Below, piece by piece: positions 759-61,763 of a DNA stretch of 64,000 bases. Both the position numbers and the translations under genes were made by a program. Each line of letters opens with the position of its first letter. Position 1 is the first letter of the stretch. The stretch lies in assembly GCA_965263035.1 (NCBI GenBank), contig OZ253580.1:5536001-5600000 (forward strand), written 5' to 3'. This DNA is from Acidobacteriota bacterium. Lineage in GTDB: Bacteria; Acidobacteriota; UBA6911; RPQK01; JAJDTT01. Under the pieces are notes generated by a model, which was not told where the DNA came from, did not search any database, and saw only the letters and a program-made list of their open reading frames with translations.

Positions 759-891
759 TTAATAAGGCCTGTGCAAACGAATGGACAGCATTGTTACCGG
801 GTCACCAAAAGGGATCGACACTGACTCGGATGCGCCGGTATTTGAAGCATTAGTCCATGATAATTTGAAGAAAACTAACCCCCATTTCTCA

Positions 892-4882: not shown

Positions 4883-5126
4883 CTCTACACACCGACACGA
4901 TAATCAGTTGGTTTAACAGCATTTCAGTGGTTTTCTTATCTACATGAATTCGAGAGCCGTCTGGCCGACTCGAATGCGGTGACGAATGCCGAAATCCGGC
5001 GATGGTCAGGGGCATTTGACCTCCCACCGGCACTCATGAGCGAGGTTTCTCCCCCAAGAGCCGACTCCAGGGCAGAGTCCGTCCCGCGGACTCCCAACCG
5101 GGCGTCTTCCATAGGGCTGGTTCTCG

Positions 5127-6539: not shown

Positions 6540-7167
6540 AAGGTCGCGTTCCTTCTGCTTTGTAAGTTATTGATTACACAACACTTATAGCAGAATACGC
6601 GGCCTTTATCTATCTTTCTGTTGAGATTTCCGGGCTACGCGAGCACTTCGGGTTGGAGCAAGACTGATATCTACGGCGATCATTCCGATGTCTATACGTC
6701 TGTGGATTTGCCCGAGATCATTTTGCCGCGGCATCAACACCTCGGTGATTACGCTAGCGTTGTATCGCGGCTCATCGAGATTTTTTCGAAAATCGCCAAG
6801 ACGGACGAACTCACCCTCTATCGCAACTTGGTTGCGGCCGACCGTGATGTCATACGGGTACGCACTGCTGAAAGCGACGATGGCAGCGTAGTCGCAAGCG
6901 GCGGAATCAATCTCATGCGGGGTGCGCACGACATGCTCTTGGCTGCGGCCTGCTCACTAAGGAATCCCCAACCTCTCTATCGGGCCGGTGCAAACAAAGA
7001 GGCCAGCGACTACTTGCGCCGAGTTCGCTTGGGACAGACTGAACAGGGTAGTTTCGTTATCACACTGCTGACACCTGTTGTTCCGCCACGGATACAGCCA
7101 ACACTCGGCCGAGAATATGATCGAGACGACGATCCAATCGAGCGGCAGGTGACACGGCGTCTAGCTA

Positions 7168-8817
7168 ATTCTCATCCAGAAAGTTGGGTTTTGGGGGATT
7201 GGGTAGCCCGAGGAAGGCCGGAGAAACTGCAATAAACCGGCTCGATGGGGGCCGAAAGCAGGAAATTCAAGTCCGTTGAGAGCCGATCCCGGATTTTGAA
7301 GACACGAGTCCCTGACGGGGCATCGGCAATGGATTCAAGCTGCGCTTACAGCAGCAGGCGGGCCAGAACCAGCAGGTTGAAGCTGATGATCGAGAGGTAC
7401 ACATATTGCTGGAAGTGGGGCCAGCCCTTCCAGGTGCAGCGTCCGAGTCCGAACACTCGCTTGAGCCACGAGATGCACCCTTCGATGCCGGCCCGGAAGC
7501 GTCGCAGTTGCCGGTAGACCCAACTGGAGCGCACCATCTCAGGGACCTTCAGTCCGCGTTTCTTGGCAAAGGCGACATCCTGGACGCCTTGCTTTTTGGC
7601 CCACTCCAGATTGGAGCGGCTGGCAAAGCATCCGTCACAACTGACCTGTCGAGGCCAACGGCCGTACAGATCATACTGGCGCCGCATCCAGGGCTGGAAC
7701 TGACCGGCATCGTTAGGGTTCCCCCGCACCACCTCAGCATCCAGCATCAGGCCGGAGACGCCGCCGGTCAGAAACAGCTTGTGCCCAAAGACCGTTTCCC
7801 GGCGCTTCTTTTTGATGATGTCGGTGTGCTCCTCAAACAAGGAGAGGACTTTCTCGGCGGCCGGAACCGTCTCTCCCCGCAGCACACGCCGCTCGGTCTG
7901 GTCGATGATCTTCTTCGTCAAATCCAAGTAATGGCGCAGTTGACCGGCGATGACCAGACTGGGCAGGTCGGTGAACCGATCCGCTTGCCGCAGCGCCCTC
8001 TCGGCGTCATGAGCGGTCTTGCGAGCGACCTTCAACAGATCCCGATAGGCTCGCAGACGACGCTTGCCCCGGTGGTTGGCGATGTTCGCAACAGCGTCGC
8101 TTGGCCCGGCGCCGGTGATCCGAAAAGACGATCTTGTGAGGTCGGGCCAAGCGGCGCAGCCAGCGGGTGAGGACTCGAACCGAGTCGGACAACATCTGGG
8201 AATCCCGCGGATAGGGGATGGGGCTTTCCACGGCCGTGGCATCGGCTCGGATCTTCCGTCCCCGTTCCAGTCCCTGGCCCTCCGCCCATTGCACCAGGAG
8301 CCGGTTGATCTGCTGCCAGGTTCCGGCTTGAATCCGGCTGATGTTGTCCTGGAGGCAGGAGGCACTGGGGGTCCATTGCCAAGGGAGTCGAGCGAAGCGA
8401 CGAAAGCTCTGAGAGTCGCTCCAGAGGAACGCCAACTTGGTGTAGGGCAGCTGATGCCAGTTCTTGAGGATGGCCGCGCGCAGGACCTGCTCTGCGGAGA
8501 GACCCGGAGCCCCCTGGCCTGAACCGGCGGTGTCACACAGATCGTGTAGAACCAGACCCAGGATCGAGGGGTTGTCATCCAAGATCTTGGAAACAGCTTT
8601 CAATTCCTGGGCGAGTCGGTGACCGGGCCAGAGCCCGGAGAGCGGAAGCTGGTTTTCCCGTTTTCGGCGCATTGTTCAAGCCCCCGGTTTTGTGTAAGTC
8701 ATTTGGTTGCTTTTATTTAGCACCAATAGACTACCAAACGACTATGACAGAACCGGGGCTTGAAAATGCCTCCTTAGTCCTTATTTCCCAATAACTTACG
8801 GCTTTCCGGATGAGAAC
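7168..8817 (-). mobile_element. IS5/ISNCY-like insertion sequence
   Basis: IRs ATTCTCATCCAGAAAG / CTTTCCGGATGAGAAC; flanking duplication TAGCTA (7162-7167, 8818-8823). Confidence 0.8.
7346..8672 (-). pseudogene. IS5/ISNCY-like DDE transposase, frameshifted at ~8090
   Basis: RADATAVES..YPRDS in one frame; KVLSLFEEHTDII, FGHK, CDGCF and FRAGIEGCISWLKR in another. Confidence 0.8.
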
Positions 8818-9943
8818 TAGCTAGCGCTCTTGCCGCTACTCGAAAAGCGACTGAAAGAACGGTCAAAGGAGATGCCAGCGCCTTCTCGGAGGCCGTGAAT
8901 GACGGTGTAAGCGCCAATCTGTGTGAGGCACTTGTTGAAGTGATTGAACCATTCCAGACAGTGGATGTTAGTCTGACCTGGGCTCGGACACGTCCGACAC
9001 ATCAAGCCCAGGATATCATTCACTTTGCCGCTGACGATGCTCCCATTTTGCGCGAAGCCTCACGGTTGTTCCGAGACCACGAACCGTGCCCGGATAAGAC
9101 TTTGTTTGGCGTTGTGCGGACGCTGAGTCGTGGCGAGGCCGAAACGAAAGGAACAGTTACTTTGCTGGCATCCATCGACGGGACGATCAAGTCAGTCAAA
9201 ACCGTTTTGCAGCAGTCTGACTACGAGCGGGCGATCTTGGCTCATAAAGAGAAGGCCCCAGTAGTAATGAAGGGTGATCTTGAGCGCTCTGGACAACGAT
9301 GGCGCTTGCTGAACCCGAAAATTGTAAATGTCATCCAGGGTAGCGAGTAGAGCCCGGGGTTATCGTGCCAAAGAAACAGCCCACACCCCAACCCGACCCC
9401 AAAGACAGAGCCCCGCTTCCATGCGCGACCTGGAAGATGTTTTCGGTCAGCTAATAGCAGCACCTCCTGGCAAGTTGAAGAGTGAGAATAGGGAGCCTGC
9501 ACGGCAGAATTGAGGCAGCGTTACAGACTGGTCCGTCGGCGTTGATGGCCAGCCTTGCTGATTTTGCTACATAAATCCCTTAAGTTAACGGACGAAGCCC
9601 GGTGCGGAACCGTGCCGGAAAGTATATTCTGGTCGGCAGGAGGAAGGCCCACCGAGACTCCGCATAATCGGCGGGAGCACGGGCTCCGCCCAGTTCTGAC
9701 CATGGCGACGGGATCCCCTTCGGTCCGTTCGATGGTCGTTTTTAGTGGAACGCTCCTCATTCTCCCATCATCGGCGGATACGGATTCCTGCGGCGCAGGC
9801 TCCTAGCCCGGATAGCCTCCGCCGGTCTCCGCGCCGGCCCTCCGGGTGACACCCCTGGCCCGCTGCGGCTCAGAGGCCCTTAGGGCCGGAAGGTGCCCTT
9901 CCGGCCAGGCAGCACGCCCAGGAAGACCACCGGTGAGGGGGCG

Positions 9944-10120
9944 TCAGGCGTCTTTGGGCCGTGGCGCCAAGTCGAACAGTGCCCGGTCCTGGTCGCGCTC
10001 CAGGAACTCATCGAGGCCCTTCATGAACCGGGTCATGAACACCGGGTCGGCTTGGCTGACGCTGTCGATGTAGGACCCGAGCAGGATCAAGCGGCGGGTG
10101 CGGCGCTTGCGGTCGGCGGC
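9944..10120 (-). pseudogene. C-terminal remnant of a MobC/MobS-like plasmid mobilisation accessory protein
   Basis: Manual translation AADRKRRTRRLILLGSYID..KGLDEFLERDQDRALFDLAPRPKDA* resembles the RKxxTRRxIxxG..LDxFLxRxxDRxLF pattern; not in the ORF track. Confidence 0.55.
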
Positions 10121-10998
10121 GGTGACGCGCCCAGGCGCTGAGCAATTATCAGCACGTGGTCATTGTCATGCGTGATGTGCGTCATGTCGCGGAACGCCTG
10201 CCGCACGCGCTGGCGGAAGGTGTCGATCGCCGCGCGGAGCGCATCTTCTGAATACAGCCGAAAGGTCGAATAATGATAGTGGGTGACTTGTTCGACGAGT
10301 CGAACCAAGGAGGAGGTGACCGGCCACGCAACCGTCTGCGCGCGCACCGACCTGAAGGCACCGGTGGCTTCCAGGGCGGCTCGCACATCGTTGACCTCAT
10401 GGAGTCTCGTTTCCCGCGTGGCAAACTCGGGAAAGTGGCGGCCCCAGATTGTGCGGCGGTTCTGCTCTGGGGTTCGCATATAGACGACGAGCTGGCCGGA
10501 GGGGGTGAGCACCCGAGACGCCTCGCCAGCAAACCGGGCGAGGTCGAAGTGGTGCACGGCATTGAAGCAGGTCATCACGTCACAGATGGAGGCCCGGAAC
10601 GGGAGCGTTTCGACGGCCCCGACCAGGTGCCGCGTACGCAGACCCGCGTGTCTGTTGCGGATGCGTGCTTGCCTGAGCATGGGCGGACTCAGATCCAGGC
10701 CGATGGAAACGACCTGCATGGCAAGAGCTGAGCCTAAGCAATGATTGACCGCGTCCAGGTACCGTCCCGAGCCCGTGGCGACGTCCACAAGCCGCACGGG
10801 TCTCCCTAAGTCCACGGCGCGAGCCACTACGTCGCTGATGATACGCACGGCCTCGAAATCCAGCTCGCGCAGCGTTCGATACCGTGCAGACACCTTGGCG
10901 AAGTGGTCGCTCAACCGCACCGTGCGACCGCGCGCTTCCCAGTCGTCCGGCCCAGGGGTAATCTCGACAGTCAATTCCGGAGTGCCTCCCGTGGCCAT
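10087..10998 (-). CDS. Class I SAM-dependent methyltransferase
   Basis: LVDVATGSG motif I, GLDLSPPML, ETLPF..DVMTC..AVHHF, RVLTPSG. Confidence 0.85.
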   Translation of the reverse strand: MATGGTPELTVEITPGPDDWEARGRTVRLSDHFAKVSARYRTLRELDFEAVRIISDVVARAVDLGRPVRLVDVATGSGRYLDAVNHCLGSALAMQVVSIGLDLSPPMLRQARIRNRHAGLRTRHLVGAVETLPFRASICDVMTCFNAVHHFDLARFAGEASRVLTPSGQLVVYMRTPEQNRRTIWGRHFPEFATRETRLHEVNDVRAALEATGAFRSVRAQTVAWPVTSSLVRLVEQVTHYHYSTFRLYSEDALRAAIDTFRQRVRQAFRDMTHITHDNDHVLIIAQRLGASPPPTASAAPAA

Positions 10999-11257
10999 CA
11001 GTTTTCTACGTGGAACGCCGGACCCCACGGCGGGATCGATTCAGGGGGCTCGACGACAATGCACCCTCAAACTCTGCCGCTACTCCGGCAACCTGTCAAG
11101 CGCTACGGTGATAGGAACCTCCAACCCGCCTGGTGCGCGGAGGCGGCCCGGGCTGATTGGGGGAGGCCCTCTCCCCCATCAGACTCCAGATCCTCTTCCG
11201 CCAGCGGCGCAAAGCGGGGCGACCCCCGCAGAAATCAGAGGTCAGGGACGTGGGTCA

Positions 11258-11285
11258 GAGTACGATAAAGTATATTATACGTAGC
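11258..11285 (+). promoter_or_regulatory. dif/Xer-like 11-6-11 recombination or autoregulatory site directly upstream of the recombinase
   Basis: GAGTACGATAA-AGTATA-TTATACGTAGC resembles dif architecture (..ATAA-N6-TTAT..); ends 4 bp before the ATG. Confidence 0.6.
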
Positions 11286-11289
11286 TAAT

Positions 11290-12480
11290 ATGAGCGACAC
11301 CGACCTCGCCCTCAGAACCGACGATTCGCCTGCCGAAAAGGACCTCGAAGGGACCTTCCCGGCCATTCTCGTGAGGGCCGGCGCGAGCGCCTGCCTCGCC
11401 GCGGACGAGTTCTTCTCCGCGCGGATCTCCAACCCCCATACGCGAACCGCCTACGCCCACCAGGTGAGCCGGTTCCTCGCTTGGTGCGAGGACGAGGGGC
11501 TGGAGCTGCACCAGGTCACGCCAGGGTTGGCCGGCCGGTTCCTGGACGAGCTCCCCGGTGGTGCCCCCACCCGGAACCAGGCCCTGGCCGGACTGCGCCA
11601 CTTCTTCGATACCCTGGTGGCCCGGCACGCGGCGGTCCTCAATCCCTTTCAGTCGGTCCGGGGGGTGCGCCACCCGCACGGGGAGGGCCGGACGCCCGAG
11701 GTGACGGTCGACCAGGCCCGGCAGCTCCTCGCCTCCATCAAAACCCGCGACGTGTACGGGCTTCGGGACCGGGCGGTCCTCGGGACGCTCATCTACACCG
11801 GCGCCCGGGTCGGGGCCATCGCCCGGCTCCGGATGCAGGATCTTCGCGACAACGGCAAGTACCGGTCGCTGCAGTTTGCGGAAAAAGGAGGGAAGGCGCG
11901 GGAGATCCCGGTGCGCCACGATCTCGACGAGTGGATCGCGGCCTACCTCGAGGGGGCCGGGCTTGAGGACGCGCCCCAGGCCTCGCCGCTGTATCGGGCC
12001 GGGCAGCGCCGCGGCAGTCCGTTGACCGATCGGGCGATGTCGCCTCTCGCCATCCAGCTGATACTCAAGCGCCGGCTCAAGGCGGCCGGGTTGCCGAAGA
12101 TCCTCTCGCCCCACTCGTTCCGGGTCCTGGTGGTCACGGACCTGCTTTCCCAGAACGTGCCGCTTGAGTACGTTCAGTACCTGGCCGGTCACGCCCACCC
12201 CCGCACTACCCAGATCTACGACCGGCGCCGCCGCCGCGTCTCCCGCAATTTGGTGGAAGGGGACGGAGAAGGGGACAGTCACCTCGTCTCGCGTCAAGTG
12301 CCACCGGCTCTCGTCCCGGGAACACCCTACCGGACCGAACCTGATCCGCGGTTTGGAGAAGGATCCCGAGTCCTTGCTGGCGAACATCCTGGATCCCAAC
12401 CGTTTCATCGAACCCCAGTATCTGCAGTACGTGGCGACGGACCTCAAAGGGGGTCTCTACACCGGCCTGCTGCGGGATGA
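11290..12480 (+). CDS. Tyrosine recombinase/integrase; native C-terminus apparently replaced at ~12258 by the palindromic repeat and a foreign tail
   Basis: Catalytic R (TGARVG), K (EKGGK), HxxR (HSFR), H (LAGHA) and Y (TTQIYD); the tail after SRNLVE is an out-of-frame read of the CxxCH duplicate. Confidence 0.88.
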   Translation: MSDTDLALRTDDSPAEKDLEGTFPAILVRAGASACLAADEFFSARISNPHTRTAYAHQVSRFLAWCEDEGLELHQVTPGLAGRFLDELPGGAPTRNQALAGLRHFFDTLVARHAAVLNPFQSVRGVRHPHGEGRTPEVTVDQARQLLASIKTRDVYGLRDRAVLGTLIYTGARVGAIARLRMQDLRDNGKYRSLQFAEKGGKAREIPVRHDLDEWIAAYLEGAGLEDAPQASPLYRAGQRRGSPLTDRAMSPLAIQLILKRRLKAAGLPKILSPHSFRVLVVTDLLSQNVPLEYVQYLAGHAHPRTTQIYDRRRRRVSRNLVEGDGEGDSHLVSRQVPPALVPGTPYRTEPDPRFGEGSRVLAGEHPGSQPFHRTPVSAVRGDGPQRGSLHRPAAG

Positions 12481-12766
12481 AACGGCCACCAGCGTCACCC
12501 TGGTGGAGGGCGACGACCTGCGGAACACCCTGTTGCGGGAGAACATCCGCGAGATCCGGGCGACGACCAACTCCCTCATGCCCGAGGGCCTGGAAGAGAA
12601 CATCGACCACCAGGAGATGGCCGATCTGATCTCCTTCATCCTCAAGTATCAGTACGAGGTCGGCACCGAGAGCGCCGGCATCGGCTACGGGGAGGAAGTC
12701 TACGAGGAGATGATGCTTCACCCGTCGCTGAGGCCGGAGAGTCCGAAACCGCAAAAGGGGAATTAG
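12291..12766 (+). repeat. 476-bp diverged duplicate of the 3' end of the CxxCH gene (283-758)
   Basis: Near-identical from GCGTCAAGTGCCAC to the stop codon; variant tail ESPKPQKGN vs ENQDSQKGN; starts 1 bp after a palindrome copy. Confidence 0.95.
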
Positions 12767-13132
12767 CTGGCTTCAGGTAGGACGAGCGACGCGCAATAGC
12801 GTGCGATAATGCGCAGAATAGGATCATCTGAAGACAGTTAAACGACCCTATTTTCCGCTCTGCGGCGGCGCCGTACGCCGGCGTTTCTGGTCCGCACGGG
12901 AAAGCGGGATCCCGAGCTCGAGCTCTGGACTTGGTCCATACCGGCCGACATCTACAGCCGTGGTCCACGTCGAGGACTTGGTCCACAGGGAAGCCCGGAT
13001 CCGGAACTCGAGGCCCTGGATCCCGAGCGAACGGCCGCGGCGCCGTATGCCGGTGCCTCCAGCTGCTCACGGGCCGGGGCCGACCATACCTGATCCTTGT
13101 ACGGAGAAGGGGACAGTCACTTCCTTTCGTCA

Positions 13133-13951
13133 TTATCCGGTATCTTCTCCATCCGAACCTGGGGGCGGCGACTCAATGGCCGATGATCTCACACGCGCTC
13201 TGACCGACGACCGATGCACAACCGTTTTCACGACCTGGGCGAACCACGGCGCGGCATGCGGCGGCACCACGACCTCTTTCACCAGGATGTCCAGATTCAC
13301 AGAAATGTATCGACCTCGCTGAACCGCAACGTCGGGATCGAGGCGAATGTCCCCGTCCTCCGAAGGCGGGCAGGGCAGAACTGCACGCACCTCGCCCTCT
13401 CCGCGGTACTCGATCCGCTTATGGAAGAGCGGGGCCCATCCGAACCTCGACACTTCCTGTTGGCGGTAATCGATGTACTTTACCTGCCCGAAGGTGATTG
13501 GCAGTTCGGGAACCGAGCAAATTGACTCTTGCAAAGCCTGGTAGGTGGTACGGACCGCTACTCCTTCCGTGCCGGCGTAGGCTTCCCACATGAGGCTGGA
13601 TTCGTGGCCGGACTCCGTCCAGCAACTTATCAAGGCGGCCCGCGCCATCTTGTGCAGAGTGTCGCGAACGAGGTCTTCCGCTTCCCGCAGAGGATCTCCA
13701 GACTTGGGAGTTAGCGGCGGATAGATAAATCCCTCGTACCTGTCCGCCATTTCGCCGACCAAGGAGAAAAACAGCGCCCTGCGTTCCAGCAGGGAGGAGA
13801 ACTTTGCGAAGCTCATGTAACGCCAGAGCGTGGCGGTTGCATCTGGTTCCGACGGCTCCCACGGAGTCTCCCAAGCGGAATCGCCACTTGAAAACAACCG
13901 TTGCTCGCCCAACGCCGCTCCGATTAGCGGCTTTCCATATTCATGAGTCAT
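13133..13951 (-). CDS. DUF2971-like protein
   Basis: LWRYMSFAKF, ISCW, ESSLMWEAY, GVAV, GQVKY and KRIEYRGEGEVR patterns; bracketed by palindrome copies. Confidence 0.65.
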   Translation of the reverse strand: MTHEYGKPLIGAALGEQRLFSSGDSAWETPWEPSEPDATATLWRYMSFAKFSSLLERRALFFSLVGEMADRYEGFIYPPLTPKSGDPLREAEDLVRDTLHKMARAALISCWTESGHESSLMWEAYAGTEGVAVRTTYQALQESICSVPELPITFGQVKYIDYRQQEVSRFGWAPLFHKRIEYRGEGEVRAVLPCPPSEDGDIRLDPDVAVQRGRYISVNLDILVKEVVVPPHAAPWFAQVVKTVVHRSSVRARVRSSAIESPPPGSDGEDTG

Positions 13952-14534
13952 TGCCAGCAGCCTGCTCTAAAACGCGGGAGAAGGGGACAGTCACCACCTC
14001 TCATTCTACAAAGGGACACCTTCAAGACCATCGAAGCCGTCCTGGGACCGCATCGTCCTCATCGTCCGAGCGGCCGCGTGCTGTTCAGAGTTCGCGGCGC
14101 AACCGGCACAGCTTACTCTGGCCAGTGCTTCTTCCGCTATTCGAATAATGACGACAGTCTCCTCGCGAGAAGGGGACAGTCACCTCGTCTCGCCGGTCAC
14201 TTTTGCGACGCAGGATTCCAGGCCCGTCGGCGCGGGAGAAGGGGACGGTCACCTCGTCTCGCCGCGCGAGTTCTCAAGGGACGGACAAGGGGACAGTCAC
14301 CTCCTCTCGCACCGCACCATGCGTACGGCTGCCCATTTCCCGATACATACGATGAACTACAGAACCACTTCAAGAGTGCCTTTGATCTCTTGGAGGGTCA
14401 GGCCTGTCTATTTCATGGCGTCTGCAGGAAACTGACAGGTGGAATCAACGGCAACGGCATTATTACGTTTCGTGTGTTTCTGGTCCTTATCAGTCAATCA
14501 TGGGAAAATCGGTGCGCTGGTACTGAAAGAATTA

Positions 14535-15356
14535 ATGAGTGTCGAACATTATTGCGTCGCGGCTACGGTGCTTGGGGCTGCTGTTGCCATAGTGGGCCTT
14601 GGCACTACGCTTAGGCTAGTGCAGGGGATTGTGGACCGGGAATGGAGAAGACTCCGATACAAGGTAGACCAAATTGTCGCGGAGATGGACTCTGCTGATT
14701 CTCCAAAGCCATCCCATCAGATGTGTCAGTTTTTGGTGGTCGGGGAAGATCGTCGGTTCCATCATCATCCAGGTGTGGATCCAATAGCGCTGGGCAGAGC
14801 CGTTTGGAAGACGTTCTATTGCGGCCAACGCCAGGGAGCGTCAACTATTGCGATGCAATTCGTGCGCACTTTAACTGGGCGCTACGAATGCACCTATCGG
14901 CGCAAGTTGCTTGAAATGATTCTTGCAGTTCGGGTGACCCACCACATTGGCCGCGCTCGGCTGCCGGCTCTCTATCTCTGGATCGCATATTACGGGTGGC
15001 AGATGAGAGGTTTCAGGCAGGCTTGTCTACGAGTTCGTATCGACCCACATACCTCCGGCGCAGCCGAATCGGCACTGCTTGTTGCTCGACTCAAGTACCC
15101 GGAAACACGGAGCGTGAGCCGCAAACAAGAGCGAAGAATTCAACGTCGGGCGGACCACCTAACGTCGTTTCGAACTTCCAGTAAAAACAATAGACTTTGG
15201 AGCCAATTAGCATTCTGGATCAATGTCACGTGTTGGAATTGGCAGGCTGAGGTCGAGAGTAGACACGGACAACGATCATCTAATTATGGCCTTCGCGGGA
15301 TGTTCGTAACAGATTCCAAAAGTACCGGCCAGTCTACGATTCCATCTGGTCTTTGA
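14535..15356 (+). CDS. Stand-alone GT51 transglycosylase-domain protein
   Basis: EDRRFHHHPGVD, GASTIAMQ, RKLLE, LYLWIAYYG motifs; N-terminal hydrophobic segment; no transpeptidase domain. Confidence 0.8.
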   Translation: MSVEHYCVAATVLGAAVAIVGLGTTLRLVQGIVDREWRRLRYKVDQIVAEMDSADSPKPSHQMCQFLVVGEDRRFHHHPGVDPIALGRAVWKTFYCGQRQGASTIAMQFVRTLTGRYECTYRRKLLEMILAVRVTHHIGRARLPALYLWIAYYGWQMRGFRQACLRVRIDPHTSGAAESALLVARLKYPETRSVSRKQERRIQRRADHLTSFRTSSKNNRLWSQLAFWINVTCWNWQAEVESRHGQRSSNYGLRGMFVTDSKSTGQSTIPSGL

Positions 15357-15482
15357 TGAGCGTATTTCTCGGTGGGAATTCGAAGGGAATCGGGGTCTTT
15401 ATTTGAAGATTTCGAGCCCCCATATGCAGCCACTTGGATTACGGAGAACCCGGGCGGTTCTGCGGGGCAAATACGTAGACTA

Positions 15483-16442
15483 ATGGCCGTAGAAATGCAG
15501 GGCAAATTCATTCCAAACACCTATCAAATTCTCGTGATGATTCTAGCGTTTGCGTTCTGCGGGCTGGTGTGGGCAGGAGACCACTATCAAAGTCTTGCAC
15601 CGAGTCCCGTCAATTACGAGGACTTCTCTCTATCCGATTTGGGGTCCCAACGAACAGTTATCGTCCGAACTCTAACAGGCGGAATCGGAGTCCTGGCCTT
15701 AAAGGTCGGATGGGGTGGCAGGGAGTCGCCCACTTTTCTCGTTGAAACGCTTGCAAGCCAGGATCGAGCGGGTAAGAGCGACCCGACGAATACGGAAACA
15801 TGGTATCTCAAGCTTTGCAATCAGATCCGCGAGGCGCTCATTGCAGCGACTGTCGAGGCTCTTGTTACAGTTATCATATTCGGCCTCGGCGGATTCATAT
15901 TCTTCAAGTACGTTGTTCGACCGCCCGATCTATCTGGGTGTTGGAAATTCACTGTGGAATACGAAAACACCGCCTACTCCAAGTTCAGCGGTCTACAGGT
16001 TACATACCAGGTCTTACTGATTCAGCAGGGCCTCAAACTATCTGGTACGGGCGAGAAACTATCTGATCGCGGACCAATACAGGATGCTAAAGACTACGTT
16101 GGTAAATACCGAACGAAGATCCAAATCGTTGGCAACGTCACACACAATTATTTCTCGCGTGATGTCGTCGCGCTTCATTACGATGAGGGCGGTGAGCGTC
16201 GCAAGAGTTCGACTGTGCACCGGCTCGTGGAATGCGGTGGGGGAAGAATGAGTGGTTGTTTTTGGTCCACGATCGCCAACACCTCGGGCCCAGTCTGGTG
16301 GGAACGTTGTGCCTCTAACATCGACTATGAGCCCGTGACGCCTCCTGGACGTTTGATGGTGGCTTCCACGATTTCGGACCGTGCAAGGAACAACTTGATG
16401 GTGAAGGCACGAAGGTGCCTTCACCCACCCAATGGCGACTGA
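15483..16442 (+). CDS. Membrane protein with a C-terminal beta-rich domain (possibly SMODS-associated 2TM-beta/Cap15-like)
   Basis: TM segments, then PDLSGCW.F..YQVLLIQ..LSGTGEK..MSGCFWST; lower GC than the flanks. Confidence 0.45.
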   Translation: MAVEMQGKFIPNTYQILVMILAFAFCGLVWAGDHYQSLAPSPVNYEDFSLSDLGSQRTVIVRTLTGGIGVLALKVGWGGRESPTFLVETLASQDRAGKSDPTNTETWYLKLCNQIREALIAATVEALVTVIIFGLGGFIFFKYVVRPPDLSGCWKFTVEYENTAYSKFSGLQVTYQVLLIQQGLKLSGTGEKLSDRGPIQDAKDYVGKYRTKIQIVGNVTHNYFSRDVVALHYDEGGERRKSSTVHRLVECGGGRMSGCFWSTIANTSGPVWWERCASNIDYEPVTPPGRLMVASTISDRARNNLMVKARRCLHPPNGD

Positions 16443-16581
16443 ACGCGTGAGATTAGAGGGGGACGGCGGGAGAACGGGCCAGTCTCCTCCTCTTGTCCTT
16501 GCGGCTTTCCGGATGAGAACCAAGTAAAGGTCCGATACCGGCCGCGCGAGTTCCCAACGCCGCCGGGCTCTCCTGGATCGG

Positions 16582-17811
16582 CTAACTGACCGGTCCAAAA
16601 TCGGGAATCTTCAGCCAGTCTCCACCCTTCAGCGCCGAGTGGAATCCGACGATTCCGGGCGCAGTATAGGACAGGGCTTGATGGACATCGACCGACGGGG
16701 CGCGTTGCTCCAGACATGCCGAAACGAACTCATGAATGATAAAGGGATGGGAACCCCCGTGCCCTCCAACGTTCCTCAGTGACGGCGGCAGTCCTGCGGA
16801 GTGGTCCGCCTGCAACAGTTCAGGTTCTGAATGAGGACGGGTCACGTAAGCGGAAGGGCACAGACCCTTCCACCTCTCGAACAACGACATTTCGGTCCCA
16901 AAATAATCCGCTCCTTCACGGCCGGGAGCGGCGGTCCACCAGTGGATGTTGATTCGGGAGGAGTTTCCACCCGACGTTTTGAAGAAGAAGGTCGTGTTCA
17001 AAAACGGGTTGCCGTACTCGTTCTCCTTGAAGAACGGGTGATCCAGCGGCGTTCCGACCGCCGCGACCTCAACCAGGCTCTCGCCGGTCACATGAACGAT
17101 CGGACCGCTGGCATGGGTGATATAGAGGCCTTGAGCGTTGCCATACCGCCATGTCGGCTTACCCTCGTGAAAGAACATCCGCTCCAGATACTCCGGCATC
17201 TCTCCCTTCGCCAAGTAGGTACCGTGGTCATGGATGTAATCCCCCTGAGTGTAGTAGATCCTCCCGAACTCTCCTTCTTCCCTCAGTCTGCGGGCAGTCA
17301 TGGTGGATGGGTGAAAGCAGCTGGTTTCGGCCATCATGTAGATCTGGCCGGTCTTTTTGACGGACTCCAGAAGCTGCTGGCACTGTTCCAAGGTTGTGGC
17401 GGCCGGAACCGCACTGATGGCGTGCCGACCGGATTCCATGACCTCCACGCAGTGCGGAACGTGATGGGGCGCCCCGGTGAAGATGGCGACCGCATCCACT
17501 GAGGGGTTCTTGAGCATGGCACGGAAATCGGCATAGGCGTTAGAGCACTCGAACCGCTCTTCCAGCCTTTTCCGGCGGTCCTCCCTGAGGTCAGCGACCG
17601 CGGTCACCTTGCAGTTGGGATGCCGCTGCCAGGGAAACGCGGCGCCGAATCCGCCGCCTACCACGCCGATCCGCAACTGTTTGCCAGCCTCGAGCGGGCG
17701 GTACCCTTTTCCGAGTAGCGAAGCGGTCAATGCGGTCGTACCGGCTGCCTTCGCACCCTGGAAAAACACTCGGCGGCTTATGGATTGGGATCGCGCCTCC
17801 GATCTCACCAT
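16582..17811 (-). CDS. Gfo/Idh/MocA-family oxidoreductase with Tat signal
   Basis: SRRVFF twin-arginine motif, LRIGVVGGGFG Rossmann motif, DAVAIFT..H, GGHGGSH. Confidence 0.88.
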   Translation of the reverse strand: MVRSEARSQSISRRVFFQGAKAAGTTALTASLLGKGYRPLEAGKQLRIGVVGGGFGAAFPWQRHPNCKVTAVADLREDRRKRLEERFECSNAYADFRAMLKNPSVDAVAIFTGAPHHVPHCVEVMESGRHAISAVPAATTLEQCQQLLESVKKTGQIYMMAETSCFHPSTMTARRLREEGEFGRIYYTQGDYIHDHGTYLAKGEMPEYLERMFFHEGKPTWRYGNAQGLYITHASGPIVHVTGESLVEVAAVGTPLDHPFFKENEYGNPFLNTTFFFKTSGGNSSRINIHWWTAAPGREGADYFGTEMSLFERWKGLCPSAYVTRPHSEPELLQADHSAGLPPSLRNVGGHGGSHPFIIHEFVSACLEQRAPSVDVHQALSYTAPGIVGFHSALKGGDWLKIPDFGPVS

Positions 17812-18074
17812 GATGGGCGTCCTTTCTGGGGGCTGGAATTTGGGTGAATCCTAGAGGACACCGAATCGGGCGGTCAAGGCAGCGTAGCGTGGGCTCGGCT
17901 ACGGAAACGGCGCTTGGAGGGAAGGAAACCAGAGAAGGGGACAGTCACCGTCTCTGGTGCCCCACGCGGTCGGGCTCGCTTCGTCGGCGACGCAAGCCTT
18001 TAGCTCGGGGGCGCCAGCGATCAGTTCCGCGAAGCACTGGCACGCTCTGAGAGAAGGAAGAAAAGTCGAACCGA

Positions 18075-19031
18075 TCAGATCAGCATCTTTCTAAGCCGTC
18101 GGAGCTTCAGCTTCACCCCAACCTTCTCGTCAACATCGAGGGCATTCTCGTACTGCTCGATCGCTTGGTGGAGATCTCCCGCCTGTTCATGAATTTCTCC
18201 CGACAACCGAAGGGCCTTGGCGATGATGCGGTCATCGTCTTGGACGTCCTGCTTGTCAAATGCCTTCTTAACTAGGGCTAGGAATTTCTCTGCATTTCCA
18301 CTAGAAATATCGTCAGAGTAGGCTGCAAGTTTTTCTCTGCAAACATCAAGGATATCCTGACCTGATCCGTAGCGGATTCGGCTCTGATCCCAATTATCGG
18401 AGTCCTCGAACCGTCCATCCTCATACGAGTATTCGAACGTCCCAAATTGCTCATAGACAAGGCCGAGCTTCCGGTCCATGTCGTCGAACCAATAGGACTC
18501 GGCCCAGCCGGTTTCCGGCTTCTTTTTCCAACGAATCTCGCCGGTGGTGAGGTCGAGAAATACCAATGCTCCCCCATCTTCTTTGGAGGGCGCATTCGCA
18601 AGCTGTACGACGGCGTACTTGCCGCTGTCACTGATGCCTGTACTGATCGCATTGGCTCGAAACTCATGCTTTAGGATTTGGTCTCCGTCAGAGGAGAATC
18701 CGTAAACTCGGCTCTTGAGGGCGTTGCCGAAACACCAGTCTGTCAGGATAATGGTTCCGTTTCTTGCCACCTTTCCATCGTTCGGGCGTTCAAGCTTCCC
18801 TGAGCACAACTTCGAATTCCCACGCTTCAGGACATACGCTCCATGCGGATCGTCGCCGTCGCTAAAGAATTGAGACCACGTCAGCCGGTATGTTCCGTCC
18901 GTTGATTCGGCATATGGTCCGACGCTCTCAATGAAATCCAGGTCGATAACTTTGGGCTTGATTCCGGTTGGCTTCGGCTTGGATCCTTGCGGAGATCGGA
19001 GAGCTCTCAGGACGGCATTGATGAAACTCAT
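18075..19031 (-). CDS. Hypothetical protein, beta-propeller-like region plus C-terminal TPR
   Basis: Likely start MSFINAV at 19031; beta-rich repeats and ALRLSGEIHEQAGDLHQAIEQYENAL TPR. Confidence 0.6.
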   Translation of the reverse strand: MSFINAVLRALRSPQGSKPKPTGIKPKVIDLDFIESVGPYAESTDGTYRLTWSQFFSDGDDPHGAYVLKRGNSKLCSGKLERPNDGKVARNGTIILTDWCFGNALKSRVYGFSSDGDQILKHEFRANAISTGISDSGKYAVVQLANAPSKEDGGALVFLDLTTGEIRWKKKPETGWAESYWFDDMDRKLGLVYEQFGTFEYSYEDGRFEDSDNWDQSRIRYGSGQDILDVCREKLAAYSDDISSGNAEKFLALVKKAFDKQDVQDDDRIIAKALRLSGEIHEQAGDLHQAIEQYENALDVDEKVGVKLKLRRLRKMLI

Positions 19032-19299
19032 AGGAATCTCCTTTGGCTCATAATGACCTTCAGCGTGCGGGGCGCGGACGTCCAAACTGACCAAGTGGAG
19101 TTCCCTGCGGCCGCCGCGGACCGCCAGCAGCCAGTGTATCAGGGGAAACGATAGGGGAAAGTCACCTTCTCTCGCCGGCGGCGCGGGGCGGTCCCAGGGA
19201 GAAGGGGATAGTGCGCCAGGTTCGCGAGCCGTGCGGGGGGAAACGGAGAAGGGGACAGTCACTTCCTCTCGGTCACCTCCTCTCGCGGGCCTGTTACGG

Positions 19300-19412
19300 G
19301 GTCTGGAAGAGAACAGCGACCGCCAGGAAATGGCCGACCTGATCACCTTCATCCTCAAGTATCAAACCGAGGTCGGCACGTAGAGCGGCGGCATCGGCTA
19401 TGGGGAGGACGT
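19300..19412 (+). pseudogene. Degenerate 3' fragment of the CxxCH gene
   Basis: GGTCTGGAAGAGAAC..ATGGCCGACCTGATC..CTCAAGTATCA..GGCATCGGCTATGGGGAGG matches ~578-688. Confidence 0.85.
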
Positions 19413-19430
19413 CTCTTTAGTTGAGTCTCG

Positions 19431-19852
19431 TCACTGCGGGACGGGAACCACCGGCAAAGTCGTGAAGATTCGGCTTCCGGCATCCAACTCCAGGGCGATC
19501 CCGGCGAACCGTTCCCCTTCAGGAGCGGTGCAACGAACCGATCCGACGAAGTCGGACGTATCGGTCTGGGTGAACAACTCGTGGATAAACTTGGCCGTCT
19601 GGCCGTTGCCGGCCAGTGGAATGTCCTTCGTCTCCAATTCCGCGCCTGCTTTCATCAATTGGCAACTCACGTCGATCGGATTCTCTCCCAGGTTCCGGAT
19701 CGCGGCTCCCGTGTTGATTCCGCCCTCTTGGCGGCGGGCCGGGAAAATGACGTCGTTTGCGGGCGCACTGACCCCCACGCCGGCCACGCCCAGGGACGGG
19801 GCATCGAACCGCAGGACCCCGCCGATGCGGGCTGCGCCGCCCGCGTCCTCCC
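19431..19852 (-). pseudogene. 3' fragment of the C-terminal-domain gene at 21340-22872
   Basis: Near-identical to ~21365-21768; its 5' break abuts the palindrome at 19857. Confidence 0.9.
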
Positions 19853-19915
19853 GAGAGAGAAAGGGACAGTCACCTCCTTGCGCCTCTTGTTATCATAATC
19901 TGATAACATCAATCG

Positions 19916-20287
19916 ATGACGACGCCGGACCGAGACCCGGGACTGGACACCCTGCTCGACCTTCACGGCGAGACGCTGTTTGTGGACGACACGGGGCATT
20001 GGGTGAAGTTCGTCGTAGTGCGGACCGAGGCGACGCCCGAACGACCGCACGCCCTCCGCTACTCGTTGACACTGCACGCGCCGGATGGCGCCAGATTGGT
20101 TGGATTCGATAATGCGCACCCGGTTAGGGAGCGGCCAGGCCCGGGCAGGCGGCGACGGACAGAGCGCGACCATCGGCATCGGCTGCGGAAGGTCCGGCCC
20201 TATGAGTACAGAGACGCAGTGACGCTCCTCGAGGATTTCTGGAAAGAAGTGGACCAAGTTCTTGAAGAAGGAGGCTCGATTCCATGA
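19916..20287 (+). CDS. DUF6516-like putative toxin
   Basis: RPHALRYSLTLH..RLVGFDNAH..DHRH..YEY..LLEDFW pattern; 4-bp overlap with the next gene. Confidence 0.75.
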   Translation: MTTPDRDPGLDTLLDLHGETLFVDDTGHWVKFVVVRTEATPERPHALRYSLTLHAPDGARLVGFDNAHPVRERPGPGRRRRTERDHRHRLRKVRPYEYRDAVTLLEDFWKEVDQVLEEGGSIP

Positions 20288-20652
20288 AGACACTAGAGAT
20301 CGGGATTGCCGGTTACGACCAGATGAAGGCGCGCACCCTGGCGATTGCCCGCGGGGAGCACACGCCCGCGAAAGGTGAGCCGAAGGTGTGGTTCACCTCG
20401 ATCGAGAGCTTTGCAAAGTTGCTCTCCGAGCACAACAGACATCTCCTGGAGCTGATTGCCCGAGAGAAACCGGGTTCGCTCACGGAGCTCGCGGAGATGG
20501 CCGGGCGAAGCAAGTCGAACCTCTCGCGAACCCTGAAGACGATGTCTAAATACGGGCTCGTGGAATTGCGACACGGAGAGCGTGGGAGGCTGGTACCGCG
20601 GGTGCCTTACGATCACGTGAGGCTCGATGTCTCGTTGACTTCAACGTGGTGA
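20284..20652 (+). CDS. MarR-type HTH putative antitoxin
   Basis: VWFTSIESFAKLLS, PGSLTELAEMAGRSKSNLSRTLKTM HTH; ATGA coupling to the upstream gene. Confidence 0.8.
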   Translation: MKTLEIGIAGYDQMKARTLAIARGEHTPAKGEPKVWFTSIESFAKLLSEHNRHLLELIAREKPGSLTELAEMAGRSKSNLSRTLKTMSKYGLVELRHGERGRLVPRVPYDHVRLDVSLTSTW

Positions 20653-20825
20653 AGCAGCGGTACACATAAGCCCCACAGAAGGTGGGCCGCCGGTCCCCGT
20701 CTCTCAGCCCGGAACAGCCCATCAATGGTACCGGGCAGTGATCCAGATCACCGCTCTCCAGCCGTGTCCATGCGAGAGTCAGGAGGGGGCCCTTCAGCCT
20801 CTCCGAAACTCCCGGAATCGGCGGT

Positions 20826-21116
20826 TCAAAATTCCCGCTCCTTTTTCTTGGAAGGGGTCTGAAGCCTCGCGACTCTCTCCAGGAACTCCCGGGCGACCCG
20901 TTCGTACCGGTCCCGATCCAGGTTCCAGGCCCTGCCGTGGCTGGCGCCGGGGACCGTCACGCACCGGACCAGATCGGATCGGGAATTCGCCAGCAGTTGG
21001 CTGGTTCGGAGCGGAACCAGGGTGTCCTCGCCGCCGTGGAAAACCAGCGTGGGCGCCTGCAAGTATTTCGTGTTCCCGACATAATTTAGTGCCTTCCAGG
21101 GGACTCCGAATCGAAC
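20826..21116 (-). pseudogene. Diverged 3' fragment of the alpha/beta-hydrolase at 60553-61710
   Basis: VRFGVPWKALNYVGNTKYLQAPTLVFHGGEDTLVPLRTSQLLA vs VRFGLPWTELNYVRETEHLQAPTLVFHGGADTLVPLRTSQLLA; its 5' break abuts the palindrome at 21119. Confidence 0.9.
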
Positions 21117-21159
21117 CGGAGAAGGGGACAGTCACCTCCTCTGAAGGGACCGGACGCGT

Positions 21160-21355
21160 GCTGAGGGATGAAGCGGGCACCGGCGTGACCCTGGTGGAGG
21201 GCGACGACCTCCGGAATACCCTGTTGCAGGAGAACATCCGTGAAATCCGGGCCACGACCAACTCCCTCATGCCCGAGGGTCTGGAGGAGAACATCGACCA
21301 CCAGGAGATGGCCGACCTTATCTCCTTCATCCTCAAGTATCAGTACGAGGTCGGT
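21160..21355 (+). pseudogene. Third 3' fragment of the CxxCH gene
   Basis: LRDEAGTGVTLVEGDDLRNTLL..SLMPEGLEENIDHQEMADLISFILKYQYEVG; begins ~18 bp after the palindrome ending at 21142. Confidence 0.9.
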
Positions 21356-22872
21356 ACCGGAATCACCGGCAAAGTCGTGAAGATTCGGCTATCGGCATCC
21401 ATCTCCAGGGCGACCCCGGTGAACCGTTCCCCTTCAGGAGCGGTGCAACGAACGGACCCGACGAAGTCGGACGTATCGGTCTGGGTGAACAACTCGTGGA
21501 TGAACTTGGCCGTCTGTCCGTTGCCGGCCAGTGGAATGTCCTTCGTCTCCAATACCGCGCCTGCTTTCATCAATTGGCAACTCACTTCGATCGGATTCTC
21601 TCCCAGGTTCCGGATCGCGGCTCCGGTGTTGATTCCACCCTCTTGGCGGCGGGCCGGAAAAATGACGTCGTTTCCGGGCGCACTTGCCCCCACGCCGGCC
21701 ACGCCCAGGGACGGGGCGTCGAACCGCAGGACCCCGCCGATGCGGGCCGCGCCGCCCGCGTCCTCCCGGTTTTTGTCGCCCGCGAGATTAAAGCGCACAA
21801 TGTCGGAGAACACCGTTACCGATCCGGTCACCAACTCCCCTCGCCCATGGGTCGAAATCACCAGTTCACCCAGAGGTTCAATCCCCGTCCGGACAGTCAA
21901 CGCTCCGTCCTCCCGGACTTCCAGATCTTCCGTCACGTCCACCACCGATTCGGGGTCGATGAGTGCGCCCATTTGATCGTAGAAGTAGATGGCCGAGTAA
22001 GTCGCCGAGGGCTCCACGTTCACCAACACCAAGTCCGAGGTGATGGACCCTCCATTCCCGAAATGCGCAAAGCTCAGAGACTGTCGCAGGTCCGCCGTGA
22101 TTGGAAGCATGGCGTTGTCCGATTGAACCTGGAGAAGTCGGTCGAAGTAAGCGATCCGATTCGGCATAGTCTCCAATATTGTCCGCTCGTAAGGTCGGGA
22201 GATTCGAGCCGAACGATATCGGACAGCCAAGTACGCCAGGAACGACTCGGTGATGTCTTCTCGCTCCGGATGATCTCGTGCGTAGTCGGAAATGAAGTTG
22301 CCATCGGCTGTCTGGGCGGCACGCCAATCGACGGCGTTGACAATCCCCATCCAGGGTGGGTCCAGGGAAGTGTGCGCCCCCTCGTGGACCAATTCCTCCT
22401 CCAAAAAACCCTTGGCGATGGACTCTTCCGCATGATCTGCATGAATGAGAATATTGTTGTTTCCACCCCCGAGAGGCTGATTCCCTTTATGGATCCAGAC
22501 CGTCTTGACATTGGTTCGAAGAAGGGTTGGCAATTGGCCGATGAATCCCCCATATTTGCTAGCCTCCGCCATCGCGGCCGATGCACTGCCGAACTCTGGA
22601 TTGACCTGAATCTCCGCAGTCAGCCCATCATCAAATCGGGCCATGAACAAATAGGCGTTGACCACGATCCAGTCCTTGACCCGCTGGTCGAACATCGTCC
22701 GTTGCCCCCGTCCGGCTTCCGTCACACTCACGAGCGCAGTCGGATCTGATAGCGTGATGATGTCCGGGTCGATCCAGACGGTGCCCGAATAGGGTGGATC
22801 GGTCTGGTCCTTGCTCTGAACCTCTCGGCCGAGCGTGGCCAGCAGGAATACAGCTAGCATTATGTGCCTCAT
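21340..22872 (-). CDS. Secreted zincin-like (HExxH) protein with one copy of the shared C-terminal domain
   Basis: Signal peptide; EEELVHEGAHTSLD and YARDHPEREDITESF; C-terminal LSFAHFGNG..ITSDLVLVN..IFTTLPV; stop codon supplied by the antisense CxxCH fragment. Confidence 0.65.
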   Translation of the reverse strand: MRHIMLAVFLLATLGREVQSKDQTDPPYSGTVWIDPDIITLSDPTALVSVTEAGRGQRTMFDQRVKDWIVVNAYLFMARFDDGLTAEIQVNPEFGSASAAMAEASKYGGFIGQLPTLLRTNVKTVWIHKGNQPLGGGNNNILIHADHAEESIAKGFLEEELVHEGAHTSLDPPWMGIVNAVDWRAAQTADGNFISDYARDHPEREDITESFLAYLAVRYRSARISRPYERTILETMPNRIAYFDRLLQVQSDNAMLPITADLRQSLSFAHFGNGGSITSDLVLVNVEPSATYSAIYFYDQMGALIDPESVVDVTEDLEVREDGALTVRTGIEPLGELVISTHGRGELVTGSVTVFSDIVRFNLAGDKNREDAGGAARIGGVLRFDAPSLGVAGVGASAPGNDVIFPARRQEGGINTGAAIRNLGENPIEVSCQLMKAGAVLETKDIPLAGNGQTAKFIHELFTQTDTSDFVGSVRCTAPEGERFTGVALEMDADSRIFTTLPVIPVPTSY

Positions 22873-22944
22873 GGACGAAGGATAGTCGCGGAGGAGGGGG
22901 ACGTAGTCGCGGAGGAGGGGACAGTCACCTTCTCGCGCGGTGTC

Positions 22945-25776: not shown

Positions 25777-25828
25777 CCTCTTCTTCCGGCCCGTGTGTCC
25801 GGGCGGCTCGGTGCAGGTCCTGTTGGAA

Positions 25829-61710: not shown

Positions 61711-61763
61711 CGGTTTCGATGGGTCGGAAGGAGGCCGGAAACGGCGTCCCGCATCACCGGGCG

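Follow-up and report, generated by a model that had tools for sequence, protein, structure and literature searches.

Do short hairpin repeats that lie head-to-tail between unrelated genes mark the joints of a gene-cassette system, and which enzyme would act on them? This question is raised by a stretch of 64,000 nucleotides (nt), hereafter the window, from the chromosome of an Acidobacteriota bacterium (GenBank assembly GCA_965263035.1, contig OZ253580.1, positions 5,536,001 to 5,600,000, forward strand). The genome analysed, designated G000, is a single 6.198-Mb contig of 62% GC, in which the window is C1:5536001-5600000; its Pfam PSCyt/PSD1 hits give it a planctomycete-like appearance. The hairpin array in this window is a real and statistically solid feature. 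Its hairpin is a TIRtron-type repeat linked, both physically and phyletically, to the gene of a Y1/HUH transposase called TIRYT; as judged by sequence comparison, the differences among nine species at two hot spots fall on the hairpin.

Hairpin Array in the Window

Fourteen same-strand hairpin copies, all on the + strand, were found between positions 12266 and 22936, with the pattern GAGAAGGGGAC-A-GTCACC(TC)TCTC. The number of about 14 co-oriented palindromes given by the earlier, sequence-only reading of this DNA is hence borne out: an 18-mer core with up to 3 mismatches matched the window 22 times vs. a mean of 0.41 in shuffled sequences, and none of the 100 shuffles reached 22. Twelve of these matches are + strand copies (12266 to 22929), and five on the - strand inside the array region represent palindromic shadows of the + copies. 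A repeat finder and a looser scan added the 13th and 14th copies: at 19153 a variant (GGGGAAAGTCACC), at 19199 a remnant of the left half. The core also has five weak matches, with 2-3 mismatches, in other parts of the window. The claim that no copies occur outside the array holds, since three of these five (51322, 52690, and 53368, - strand) lie in a repeated coding stretch of ~78 nt (AACGACGCCTTCTCCGTGAC...) and are no hairpin copies.

The palindrome in the array extends beyond its initially proposed version to ~31 nt, GCGAGAGAAGGGGACAGTCACCTC(C/G)TCTCGC, the right arm usually being two bases longer. As single-stranded DNA (ssDNA), the array copies fold with -3.5 to -10 kcal/mol; copy 14 reaches -10 kcal/mol (z -3.5), and copy 4 folds with -8 kcal/mol on the + strand vs. 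-6.3 on the - strand. The conserved G/A mismatch pointed out previously is real: G8/A16 is present in 58 of the 61 copies found in the genome, although the search pattern itself partly imposes it. Position 15 is occupied by C in 49 and by T in 12 of the genome copies, the T retaining a G-T pair on the motif strand only. Left-half hairpin remnants are present within 45 nt upstream of 12 of 62 copies, compared with 2.1 at random positions. The 5' flanks are mostly CGG or GCG, and a GTAG tag was not found in them. The region 11000-24000 of the window gave no Rfam match at E 0.1 or better.

The distances between the array copies are irregular (48 to 2776 nt). The copies lie 4-82 nt from the ends of open reading frames (ORFs), and runs of copies with empty spacers of 20-160 nt occur as well. 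The cassette genes, i.e., those of the blocks between hairpins, reside on both strands, whereas the orientation of the hairpins is constant. The absence of attC form and of CRISPR spacing was noted correctly, since the site is 25-31 nt long without RYYYAAC/GTTRRRY ends and the spacers are of uneven length and hold genes; a CRISPR array was rejected on the latter grounds. The hairpins, the cassettes, and the conserved flanks of the locus are as follows:

3..758, +: left flank, 3' part of a cytochrome-c-domain gene, conserved
12266..12290, +: hairpin copy 1, replacing the last 15 nt of the integrase gene and abutting a 5'-truncated copy of the cytochrome-c gene
12291..12791, +: cassette of the displaced 3' end of the cytochrome-c gene (97% identity to window 283-758) and the ancestral downstream flank
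13104..13128, +: hairpin copy 2
13133..13951, -: single-gene cassette with a 272-aa ORF, 4 nt and 26 nt from the flanking hairpins
13978..14002, +: hairpin copy 3
14167..14191, +: hairpin copy 4, with the stronger ssDNA fold on the + strand
14236..14260, +: hairpin copy 5; the 23 nt after it (14261-14283) are left over from the left end of the oxidoreductase cassette
14284..14308, +: hairpin copy 6
14309..16469, +: two-gene cassette of GC 51-55% (GT51 transglycosylase, 14439-15356; 356-aa ORF, 15372-16442), absent from the orthologous arrays
16470..16494, +: hairpin copy 7, decayed (3 mismatches)
16541..17893, -: oxidoreductase cassette (GFO_IDH_MocA; gene 16582-17811), at the locus in 9/9 genomes of the genus
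17932..17956, +: hairpin copy 8
17957..19152, -: cassette with a TPR-like ORF, unique to G000 among the nine genomes compared
19153..19223, +: variant copy 9 (19153-19177) and the left-half remnant from 19199
19246..19286, +: hairpin copy 11, right arm partially duplicated in tandem (19270-19286)
19271..19856, no strand assigned: fragment cassette, comprising 19299-19414 from the cytochrome-c gene and 19437-19853, a truncated version of the gene 21340-22872
19857..19881, +: hairpin copy 12, left boundary of the toxin-antitoxin cassette
19882..20657, +: cassette of the TumE toxin (19916-20287) and its HTH partner (20284-20652), in 6/9 genomes with the same right end in 6/6
20862..21116, -: 255 nt duplicated from the 3' end of the hydrolase gene in the right flank, stopping at hairpin 13
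21119..21143, +: hairpin copy 13
21144..22911, -: cassette of a cytochrome-c piece (21156-21392) fused to a 510-aa gene (21340-22872)
22912..22936, +: hairpin copy 14, end of the array
60553..62115, -: right flank, alpha/beta hydrolase gene, conserved, ~37.6 kb beyond the array in G000

The gene labels offered for the cassettes were only partly upheld. GT51 (PF00912, E 7e-29), the oxidoreductase (GFO_IDH, E 1.6e-17), and the toxin-antitoxin pair stand, whereas TPR is weak and below the cut-off, DUF2971 reached E 0.037 (15.8 bits vs. the cut-off of 22), and the zinc peptidase E 0.18. For the 272-aa ORF, no family exceeded its cut-off. Pieces from the 3' part of the cytochrome gene follow closely on hairpins, their starts (12291, 21156, and 19299) corresponding to three different positions of the gene.

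Distribution of the Hairpin in the Genome

At up to 2 mismatches, the motif occurs 61 times in the whole genome, and four co-oriented arrays account for most of the copies:

1.945-1.959 Mb: 8/8 copies on the + strand
2.278-2.311 Mb: 11/12 copies on the - strand
4.264-4.271 Mb: 6/6 copies on the - strand
window array, at up to 2 mismatches: 11/11 copies on the + strand

Neighbouring copies less than 10 kb apart share their orientation in 38 of 40 pairs. The genome scan suggested by the earlier reading reveals clustering and local co-orientation rather than random scatter. Each of the arrays possesses an arm variant of its own.

The blocks in the other arrays include AbiEii-like ATPases with an HNH protein, GmrSD, a Schlafen/AlbA_2 protein, P450s, GNAT, radical SAM, APH, PhyH, and EamA genes, along with IS elements and one tnpB. 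A link of the motif to TnpB was considered and rejected, since the tnpB of the 1.95-Mb array has further copies in the genome that lie away from motifs. One more observation concerns an IS110-family element inside the 4.264-Mb array (L019 3080-4682), of which the genome holds at least eight full-length copies of ~1.6 kb, 97-99% identical.

A second hairpin family, tagged with GTAG (GTAGGGGCACCCCTTGTGGGTGCCC), numbers 41 copies (19 on the + and 22 on the - strand), scattered singly, with none in the window. This family being dispersed, the formation of arrays is not a general behaviour of hairpin repeats in G000. Two Y1_Tnp open frames (133 and 238 aa, at 3478135 and 2482924) might be the RAYTs of the GTAG-tagged family.

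Link of the Hairpin to a Y1/HUH Enzyme

The enzyme was found by a search of related genomes with the Pfam family Y1_Tnp, which returned a 311-aa frame adjoining motif copies in G023, a genome of another family in the same order as the genus. G000 possesses four intact 311-aa TIRYT genes (800924, 1560682, 1832165, and 5961195). None of them is in the window, so the enzyme would act in trans. The core of the flanking repeats in G000 is GGGACAGTC with other arms, e.g., GAAAAAGGGGACAGTCTATTTTTC; it flanks all four genes, upstream in the orientation of the gene (+) and downstream inverted. The idea of a strand-asymmetric hairpin tied to a HUH tyrosine transposase encoded elsewhere is supported, with hairpin variants on both sides of each gene. 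In five congeners, 20 sampled TIRYT copies carry the core upstream in the + orientation in 20/20 and downstream inverted in 18/20 cases, often as 2-6 tandem units. The opposite orientations of the core are also encountered in the same 20 copies (3/20 upstream, 10/20 downstream).

The 311-aa protein matches Pfam Y1_Tnp with 37.3 bits (cut-off 23), a family matched by 42 of 47 TIRYT family members. Its HuH motif is NHFH and its Tyr motif YVELNAVRAGLV, YVELNA(V)RAGLV; the family consensus reads MGNHxH, FWxxRFKS, YVELNPVRAGLV. The best PDB profile match, 4ER8 (TnpArep), is weak (E 0.026), and phmmer gave no match of TIRYT in the PDB. At E 0.001 or better, the protein is matched by 6991 cluster representatives.

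The phyletic distribution of the two partners coincides. Of the 31 related genomes, the nine of the genus and G023 carry the motif in multiple copies (11-75 matches, with 51 in G023), while four others have 1-2 matches. TIRYT homologues with at least 73% identity occur in exactly those 10 of the 31 genomes, elsewhere the identity being 58% at most; the ten genomes represent two lineages, not ten independent cases, and G016 is counted among the negatives of these tallies. In a sample of the phylum comprising 201 genomes, the motif was present in many copies in six and in one copy in five. Congeners harbor 2-12 TIRYT gene copies.

The 5.961-Mb unit of the TIRYT gene and its repeats (TIRtron) occupies an orthologous intergenic site in seven of the nine genomes, the site being empty in G004 and G008. 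It has one orientation in G000, G001, G006, and G007 and, as a complete unit, the opposite one in G002, G003, and G005. The filled site contains a ~100-nt duplicate of the 3' end of the right-flank gene, which stops 10 nt before the first hairpin. Members of the GTAG-tagged family are located at L020 ~1455-1550 and 3385-3480 (5.960 and 5.962 Mb in G000).

In some arrays of G023, hairpins are densely packed, and two non-coding units of ~170-210 nt, complete or truncated, alternate between them. One such array (L005, G023:C1:1486500-1491000) displays 18 hairpin cores in 2.2 kb, with a right arm (ATCATTTAGG) not complementary to the left arm.

Variation of the Locus across Species

The window locus was found in all eight congeners, with the cytochrome-c gene on the left, the hydrolase gene on the right, and a co-oriented array of differing content in between. 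The hairpin-punctuated DNA between the flanks ranges from ~3 kb (G004) to ~60 kb (G000). All 46 copies in the eight orthologous loci point alike relative to the cytochrome gene, vs. one match in reversed-sequence controls. No TIRYT gene or integrase was found in these eight loci.

The oxidoreductase cassette is present in 9/9 genomes with 88-93% identity, similar to that of the flanks. From hairpin to hairpin, it measures exactly 1358 nt in three instances, and it is duplicated in G007. Eleven of its 12 copies or fragments start directly after the right arm, ...TCTC|GCCGCGCGAG, three of them after an extra partial right arm; the exception is the full copy in G000, with 46 other bases after the hairpin. 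At the right end, GCGA(G/C)AGAAGGGG follows directly in five of nine cases, and an intact or decayed hairpin lies within 50 nt in the other four. Truncated oxidoreductase pieces are lodged between hairpins: bases 1-173 in G008, 974-1180 in G006, and 1-23 in G000 (14261-14283).

The toxin-antitoxin cassette of six of the nine genomes ends at the same nucleotide in all six, followed by an intact or decayed hairpin. The order of the two cassettes is oxidoreductase, then toxin-antitoxin in G002, G003, G006, and G007, and the reverse in G004. Each genome also has blocks absent from the others (in G000, the 272-aa ORF, the GT51 pair of GC 51-55%, and the TPR-like ORF). The cross-genome alignment, which had been proposed as a check of the motif as a cassette boundary, therefore speaks for it: the cassette differences at the orthologous locus coincide with hairpins. 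The motif polymorphisms beside the same cassette held too little signal to place the crossover point.

The 4.26-Mb array represents an orthologous variable locus of its own, with co-oriented hairpins in G003, G005, and G006, and its left-flank gene recurs within the array, once in full and several times in part. In both arrays, as well as at the TIRtron insertion site, hairpins border on pieces of flanking genes. A separate observation is that the hot-spot insertions are bracketed by long direct duplications of flanking gene ends (~100 nt, 476 nt, and ~2 kb); to our knowledge, no standard transposition mechanism explains such long bracketing duplications. Their positions are the following:

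window: 283-758 and 12291-12766
L020: 1600-1689 and 3495-3584
L019: 182-2341 and 4690-6726

Possible Mechanism and Alternative Explanations

In the explanation favoured here, the palindrome is a self-complementary member of a TIRtron family of hairpin repeats and would be recognised by the RAYT-like Y1/HUH enzyme TIRYT encoded at four other places. Its copies build up head-to-tail at a small number of hot spots, which have a fixed position in the intergenic DNA of convergent genes, and mark there the junctions for insertion, duplication, deletion, reordering, and truncation of accessory blocks. TIRYT would bind the hairpin on the strand carrying GGGGACAGTCAC and nick that strand at or beside the hairpin. 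Rejoining of the nicked strand to another copy of the same orientation would loop out or take in the intervening DNA. Occasional joins to a non-cognate site would give rise to circles with flank fragments, the reinsertion of which may leave truncated genes and long flank duplications at hairpins. We infer TIRYT as the cutter and joiner, together with the position of the cut and the single-stranded circle intermediates.

That TIRYT drives cutting and joining at the hairpins, and that the cassette turnover is enzyme-driven, is given a probability of roughly 0.5. More tentative is the notion of an integron-like gene-cassette system run by this HUH single-strand nuclease instead of a tyrosine recombinase, with strand-specific hairpins as the cut-and-rejoin sites. 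In such a system, accessory and defence genes would be captured, shuffled, duplicated, and discarded via the hairpins, and aberrant joins would yield the fragments and the flank duplications.

A number of points weigh against a driving role of TIRYT. The TIRYT genes of G000 are flanked by the arm variant GTCT[AG]TTTTTC, and the array copies have the arm GTCACC..TCTC; the array-type variant adjoins a TIRYT gene in G023 (L003, L004), G007 (L006), and part of G005, but not in G000. Several of the array copies are decayed, so the array may be a fossil. The cassette genes lie on both strands. Orientation relative to replication, as deduced from GC skew (maximum near 5.86 Mb, minimum near 2.86 Mb; arrays at 1.95, 2.29, 4.27, and 5.55 Mb), shows no significant bias, unlike that of IS608-type elements: 37 copies are leading and 24 lagging, or 14 vs. 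7 units if each array is counted once. A search for motif-bounded cassettes residing intact at another locus yielded none, and homologues of array genes elsewhere are without the motif (2/2), have other boundaries, or are inverted relative to the motif (GT51, G007).

Four public read runs, in the form of short Logan contigs, displayed no cleavage, circle, or excision product. Since the motif joints in these contigs are short, with sides of 21-24 nt, and match other genomic copies (the letters of the 14002/12257 joint fit the 4.27-Mb array), they constitute no evidence for or against circles or deletions; uncovered stretches in X1 and X2 were left out of account. Furthermore, RecA recombination between direct repeats of 25-31 nt could give duplication, deletion, and change of order, and unequal crossing-over with hairpin-induced template switching could account for most of the patterns. 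Finally, TIRYT is probably a TnpA-Y1 of subclass 2.1 (PMC6006769, Table 1), as judged from motif signatures alone, and Quentin et al. 2018 (PMC6006769) saw no REP-like structures adjoining the genes of this subclass.

A serious, though less probable, alternative is that the repeats are passive, being spread by TIRYT or by local duplication, and that host processes shape the cassettes. RecA recombination between the direct 25-31-nt repeats would then give duplication, deletion, and reordering, and template switching at replication stalled by hairpins would give truncations and flank duplications with their ends at the foot of the hairpin. All of the within-locus changes (the duplication in G007, the swap in G004, the deletions) are expected from unequal crossing-over of direct repeats, no transfer of a cassette between loci was found, and junctions share short letters, e.g., GC(G) at 12290/12291; moreover, many copies are decayed, and the half-site remnants fit slippage in the hairpin. 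Passive repeats accord less readily with unique foreign blocks of differing GC placed exactly between hairpins in every genome, with the strict co-orientation in nine species, and with a GTAG-type hairpin family that forms no arrays in the same genome. A length of 25 nt is also near the lower limit of RecA recombination. An unlikely explanation, although compatible with the others, is that the hairpins have been selected as transcription terminators, RNA-stabilising elements, or insulators between acquired genes. Their proximity to ORF ends (4-82 nt) and the location of the arrays between convergent genes agree with it, and REPs of other bacteria have been reported as 3' elements (PMC3733652). 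However, the orientation stays constant while the genes lie on both strands, the stability is modest (-3.5 to -10 kcal/mol) without a T run, empty 20-160-nt spacers and copies abutting gene fragments are encountered, and there is no Rfam match.

The sequence-only reading had named the adjacent tyrosine recombinase (ORF 11290-12480, PF00589) as another candidate enzyme, the motif then being its attachment or crossover site and the array a stack of tandem integrations. The gene does end at the first motif, the 11.5-kb insertion carrying it has a 476-nt direct repeat of the target gene on either side, and motifs in two other arrays are accompanied by fragments of integrase genes. The candidate nevertheless fails on several counts and is very improbable. 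Five intact paralogues, which end NLVERI(S/P)(V/F)-stop, have no well-formed hairpin within 3 kb, and the window copy is itself truncated by the motif: it lacks the last five codons, its final 15 nt being lost where the first hairpin begins. The integrase is absent from the eight orthologous arrays, and G023, with its 51 motif copies, has no integrase homologue at E 1e-30 or better. The least probable explanation is a classical integron cassette array or an attC cluster without integrase (CALIN). Such an array would share the co-oriented imperfect palindromes between compact cassettes, but the genome has no integron integrase (best TIGR02249 match of 78.7 bits vs. the cut-off of 265), the 25-31-nt site is without RYYYAAC/GTTRRRY ends, and the genes lie on both strands.

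Comparison with Known Systems

The attC sites of integron cassette arrays have the form R''/L''...L'/R' with RYYYAAC and GTTRRRY and span ~57-141 nt. The arrays described here resemble those of integrons in the co-oriented, strand-asymmetric imperfect palindromes at the boundaries of compact cassettes, the fixed chromosomal locus, and the content that varies between relatives. They differ in having neither IntI nor attC, in cassette genes of both orientations, in a HUH nuclease as the candidate enzyme, and in that no transfer of cassettes between arrays was seen.

The closest known counterpart is the class delineated by Di Nocera et al. 2013, in which TIRYTs are RAYT-like Y1 genes flanked by terminal inverted repeats with GGGGWSAS, and the TIRtron repeat families are moderately abundant and occur as singles, dimers, or clusters (PMC3733652). 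TIRYT was later equated, along with RAYT group 1, with subclass 2.1 by Quentin et al. 2018 (PMC6006769). The likeness extends to the Y1/HUH gene flanked by inverted repeats, the hairpin core GGGGACAG, which fits GGGGWSAS and is present in array copies as well as in the copies flanking TIRYT genes, the N-H-[YF]-H and Y-[IV]-E-L-N-P-like signatures, and the occurrence of repeats as singles, dimers, and clusters. Since the core and the enzyme fit this description, both are further members of the described class, and the designation of the system as undescribed was too strong for them. What differs is the head-to-tail arrangement with genes between the repeats, the positions conserved across the genus, and the cassette differences falling on hairpins, compared with the dimers and clusters mentioned in the excerpted literature; a further difference is the 2-12 gene copies per genome.

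Classical RAYTs cut CT or CA beside the hairpin and rejoin the ends, need a bulge or loop, and are inactive on the complementary strand (PMC8266576); the excerpts of the TIRtron literature examined (PMC3733652, PMC6006769) report no comparable cleavage data for TIRYT. The REP/RAYT systems (REPtrons; Corneloup 2021, PMC8266576) are similar in their short imperfect hairpin with a conserved mismatch and in a gene flanked by inverted copies, their enzymes being characterized by recognition of one strand, a cut beside the hairpin, and rejoining. In contrast, no GTAG (or CGTC) foot tag was found here, the 61 copies are clustered and co-oriented rather than dispersed or alternating in the hundreds, and the enzyme gene is multi-copy (2-12 per genome) rather than single. 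The NCBIfam model of REP-associated tyrosine transposases (NF047646) is matched by the 311-aa protein with 50.7 bits, below its cut-off of 80.

The IS200/IS605 elements (IS608), with their single-strand 'peel and paste' transposition, likewise employ a Y1 enzyme on one-strand hairpins, and in principle a segment between same-strand hairpins could leave as a single-stranded circle (PMC8266576, PMC6006769). The Y motif here is of the type Y---N (YVELN), not Y---Q as in class 1 (PMC6006769, Table 1), the own repeats of the TIRYT gene are inverted, and there is no clear replication-strand bias.

The open-access literature on REP/RAYT, REPtrons, and HUH cassettes yielded no account of gene arrays punctuated by hairpins and linked to a Y1 enzyme. 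Hence, within the literature searched, the head-to-tail, gene-bearing, positionally conserved arrays appear new, the repeat and the enzyme class being known. RAYT/TIRYT-type HUH enzymes are widespread, and the debate about their biological role continues. In the hot spots described here, which keep their position across the genus while their content turns over, accessory blocks are delimited by the cognate hairpins; among the genes of these blocks are toxin-antitoxin, AbiEii-like ATPase, GmrSD, and Schlafen-type defence genes. Should the turnover be driven by the enzyme, this would be a second, mechanistically independent route of cassette plasticity beside integrons and a natural system of single-strand DNA insertion; if it does not, the locus still exemplifies how short hairpin repeats structure variable regions.

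Neighboring Insertion and Other Features

The integrase gene belongs to a strain-specific insertion outside the hairpin system, which lies between two 476-nt copies (97% identical) of the cytochrome gene's 3' end:

759..12258, no strand assigned: group II intron reverse transcriptase (RT), three DDE transposases, methyltransferase, and tyrosine integrase (11290-12258)

The group II intron RT/maturase (RVT_1 and GIIM, window 1444-2724, + strand) lies just past the stop codon of the cytochrome-c gene. The DDE transposases are encoded at 3170-4642, 5127-6539, and 7346-8578, and a close relative of the second is present in the 2.29-Mb array (L017 18268-19680). The integrase has at least five intact paralogues with 60-92% amino acid identity, e.g., at 2087369-2088337, 3683196-3684164, and 5656001-5656966, as well as fragments. 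Nucleotide homology of the integrase ends at the stop codon; upstream, the window copy has a stretch (..gagtacgataaagtatattatacgtagcta..) in common with its three closest paralogues.

The 510-aa gene (21340-22872) of the last cassette belongs to a very large family of paralogues, dozens of which show 64-75% nucleotide identity, the closest reaching 81% and 92%. Its paralogues include 19437-19853, 25857-27252, and 46303-47698 in the window, those at 6.147-6.194 Mb of the genome, and others; no Pfam family exceeded its cut-off for this family. Within the ~37.6 kb between the array and the ancestral right flank, a single ORF of 6634 aa (window 25829-45733, - strand) is located directly after the gene of a TonB-dependent receptor (22945-25905).

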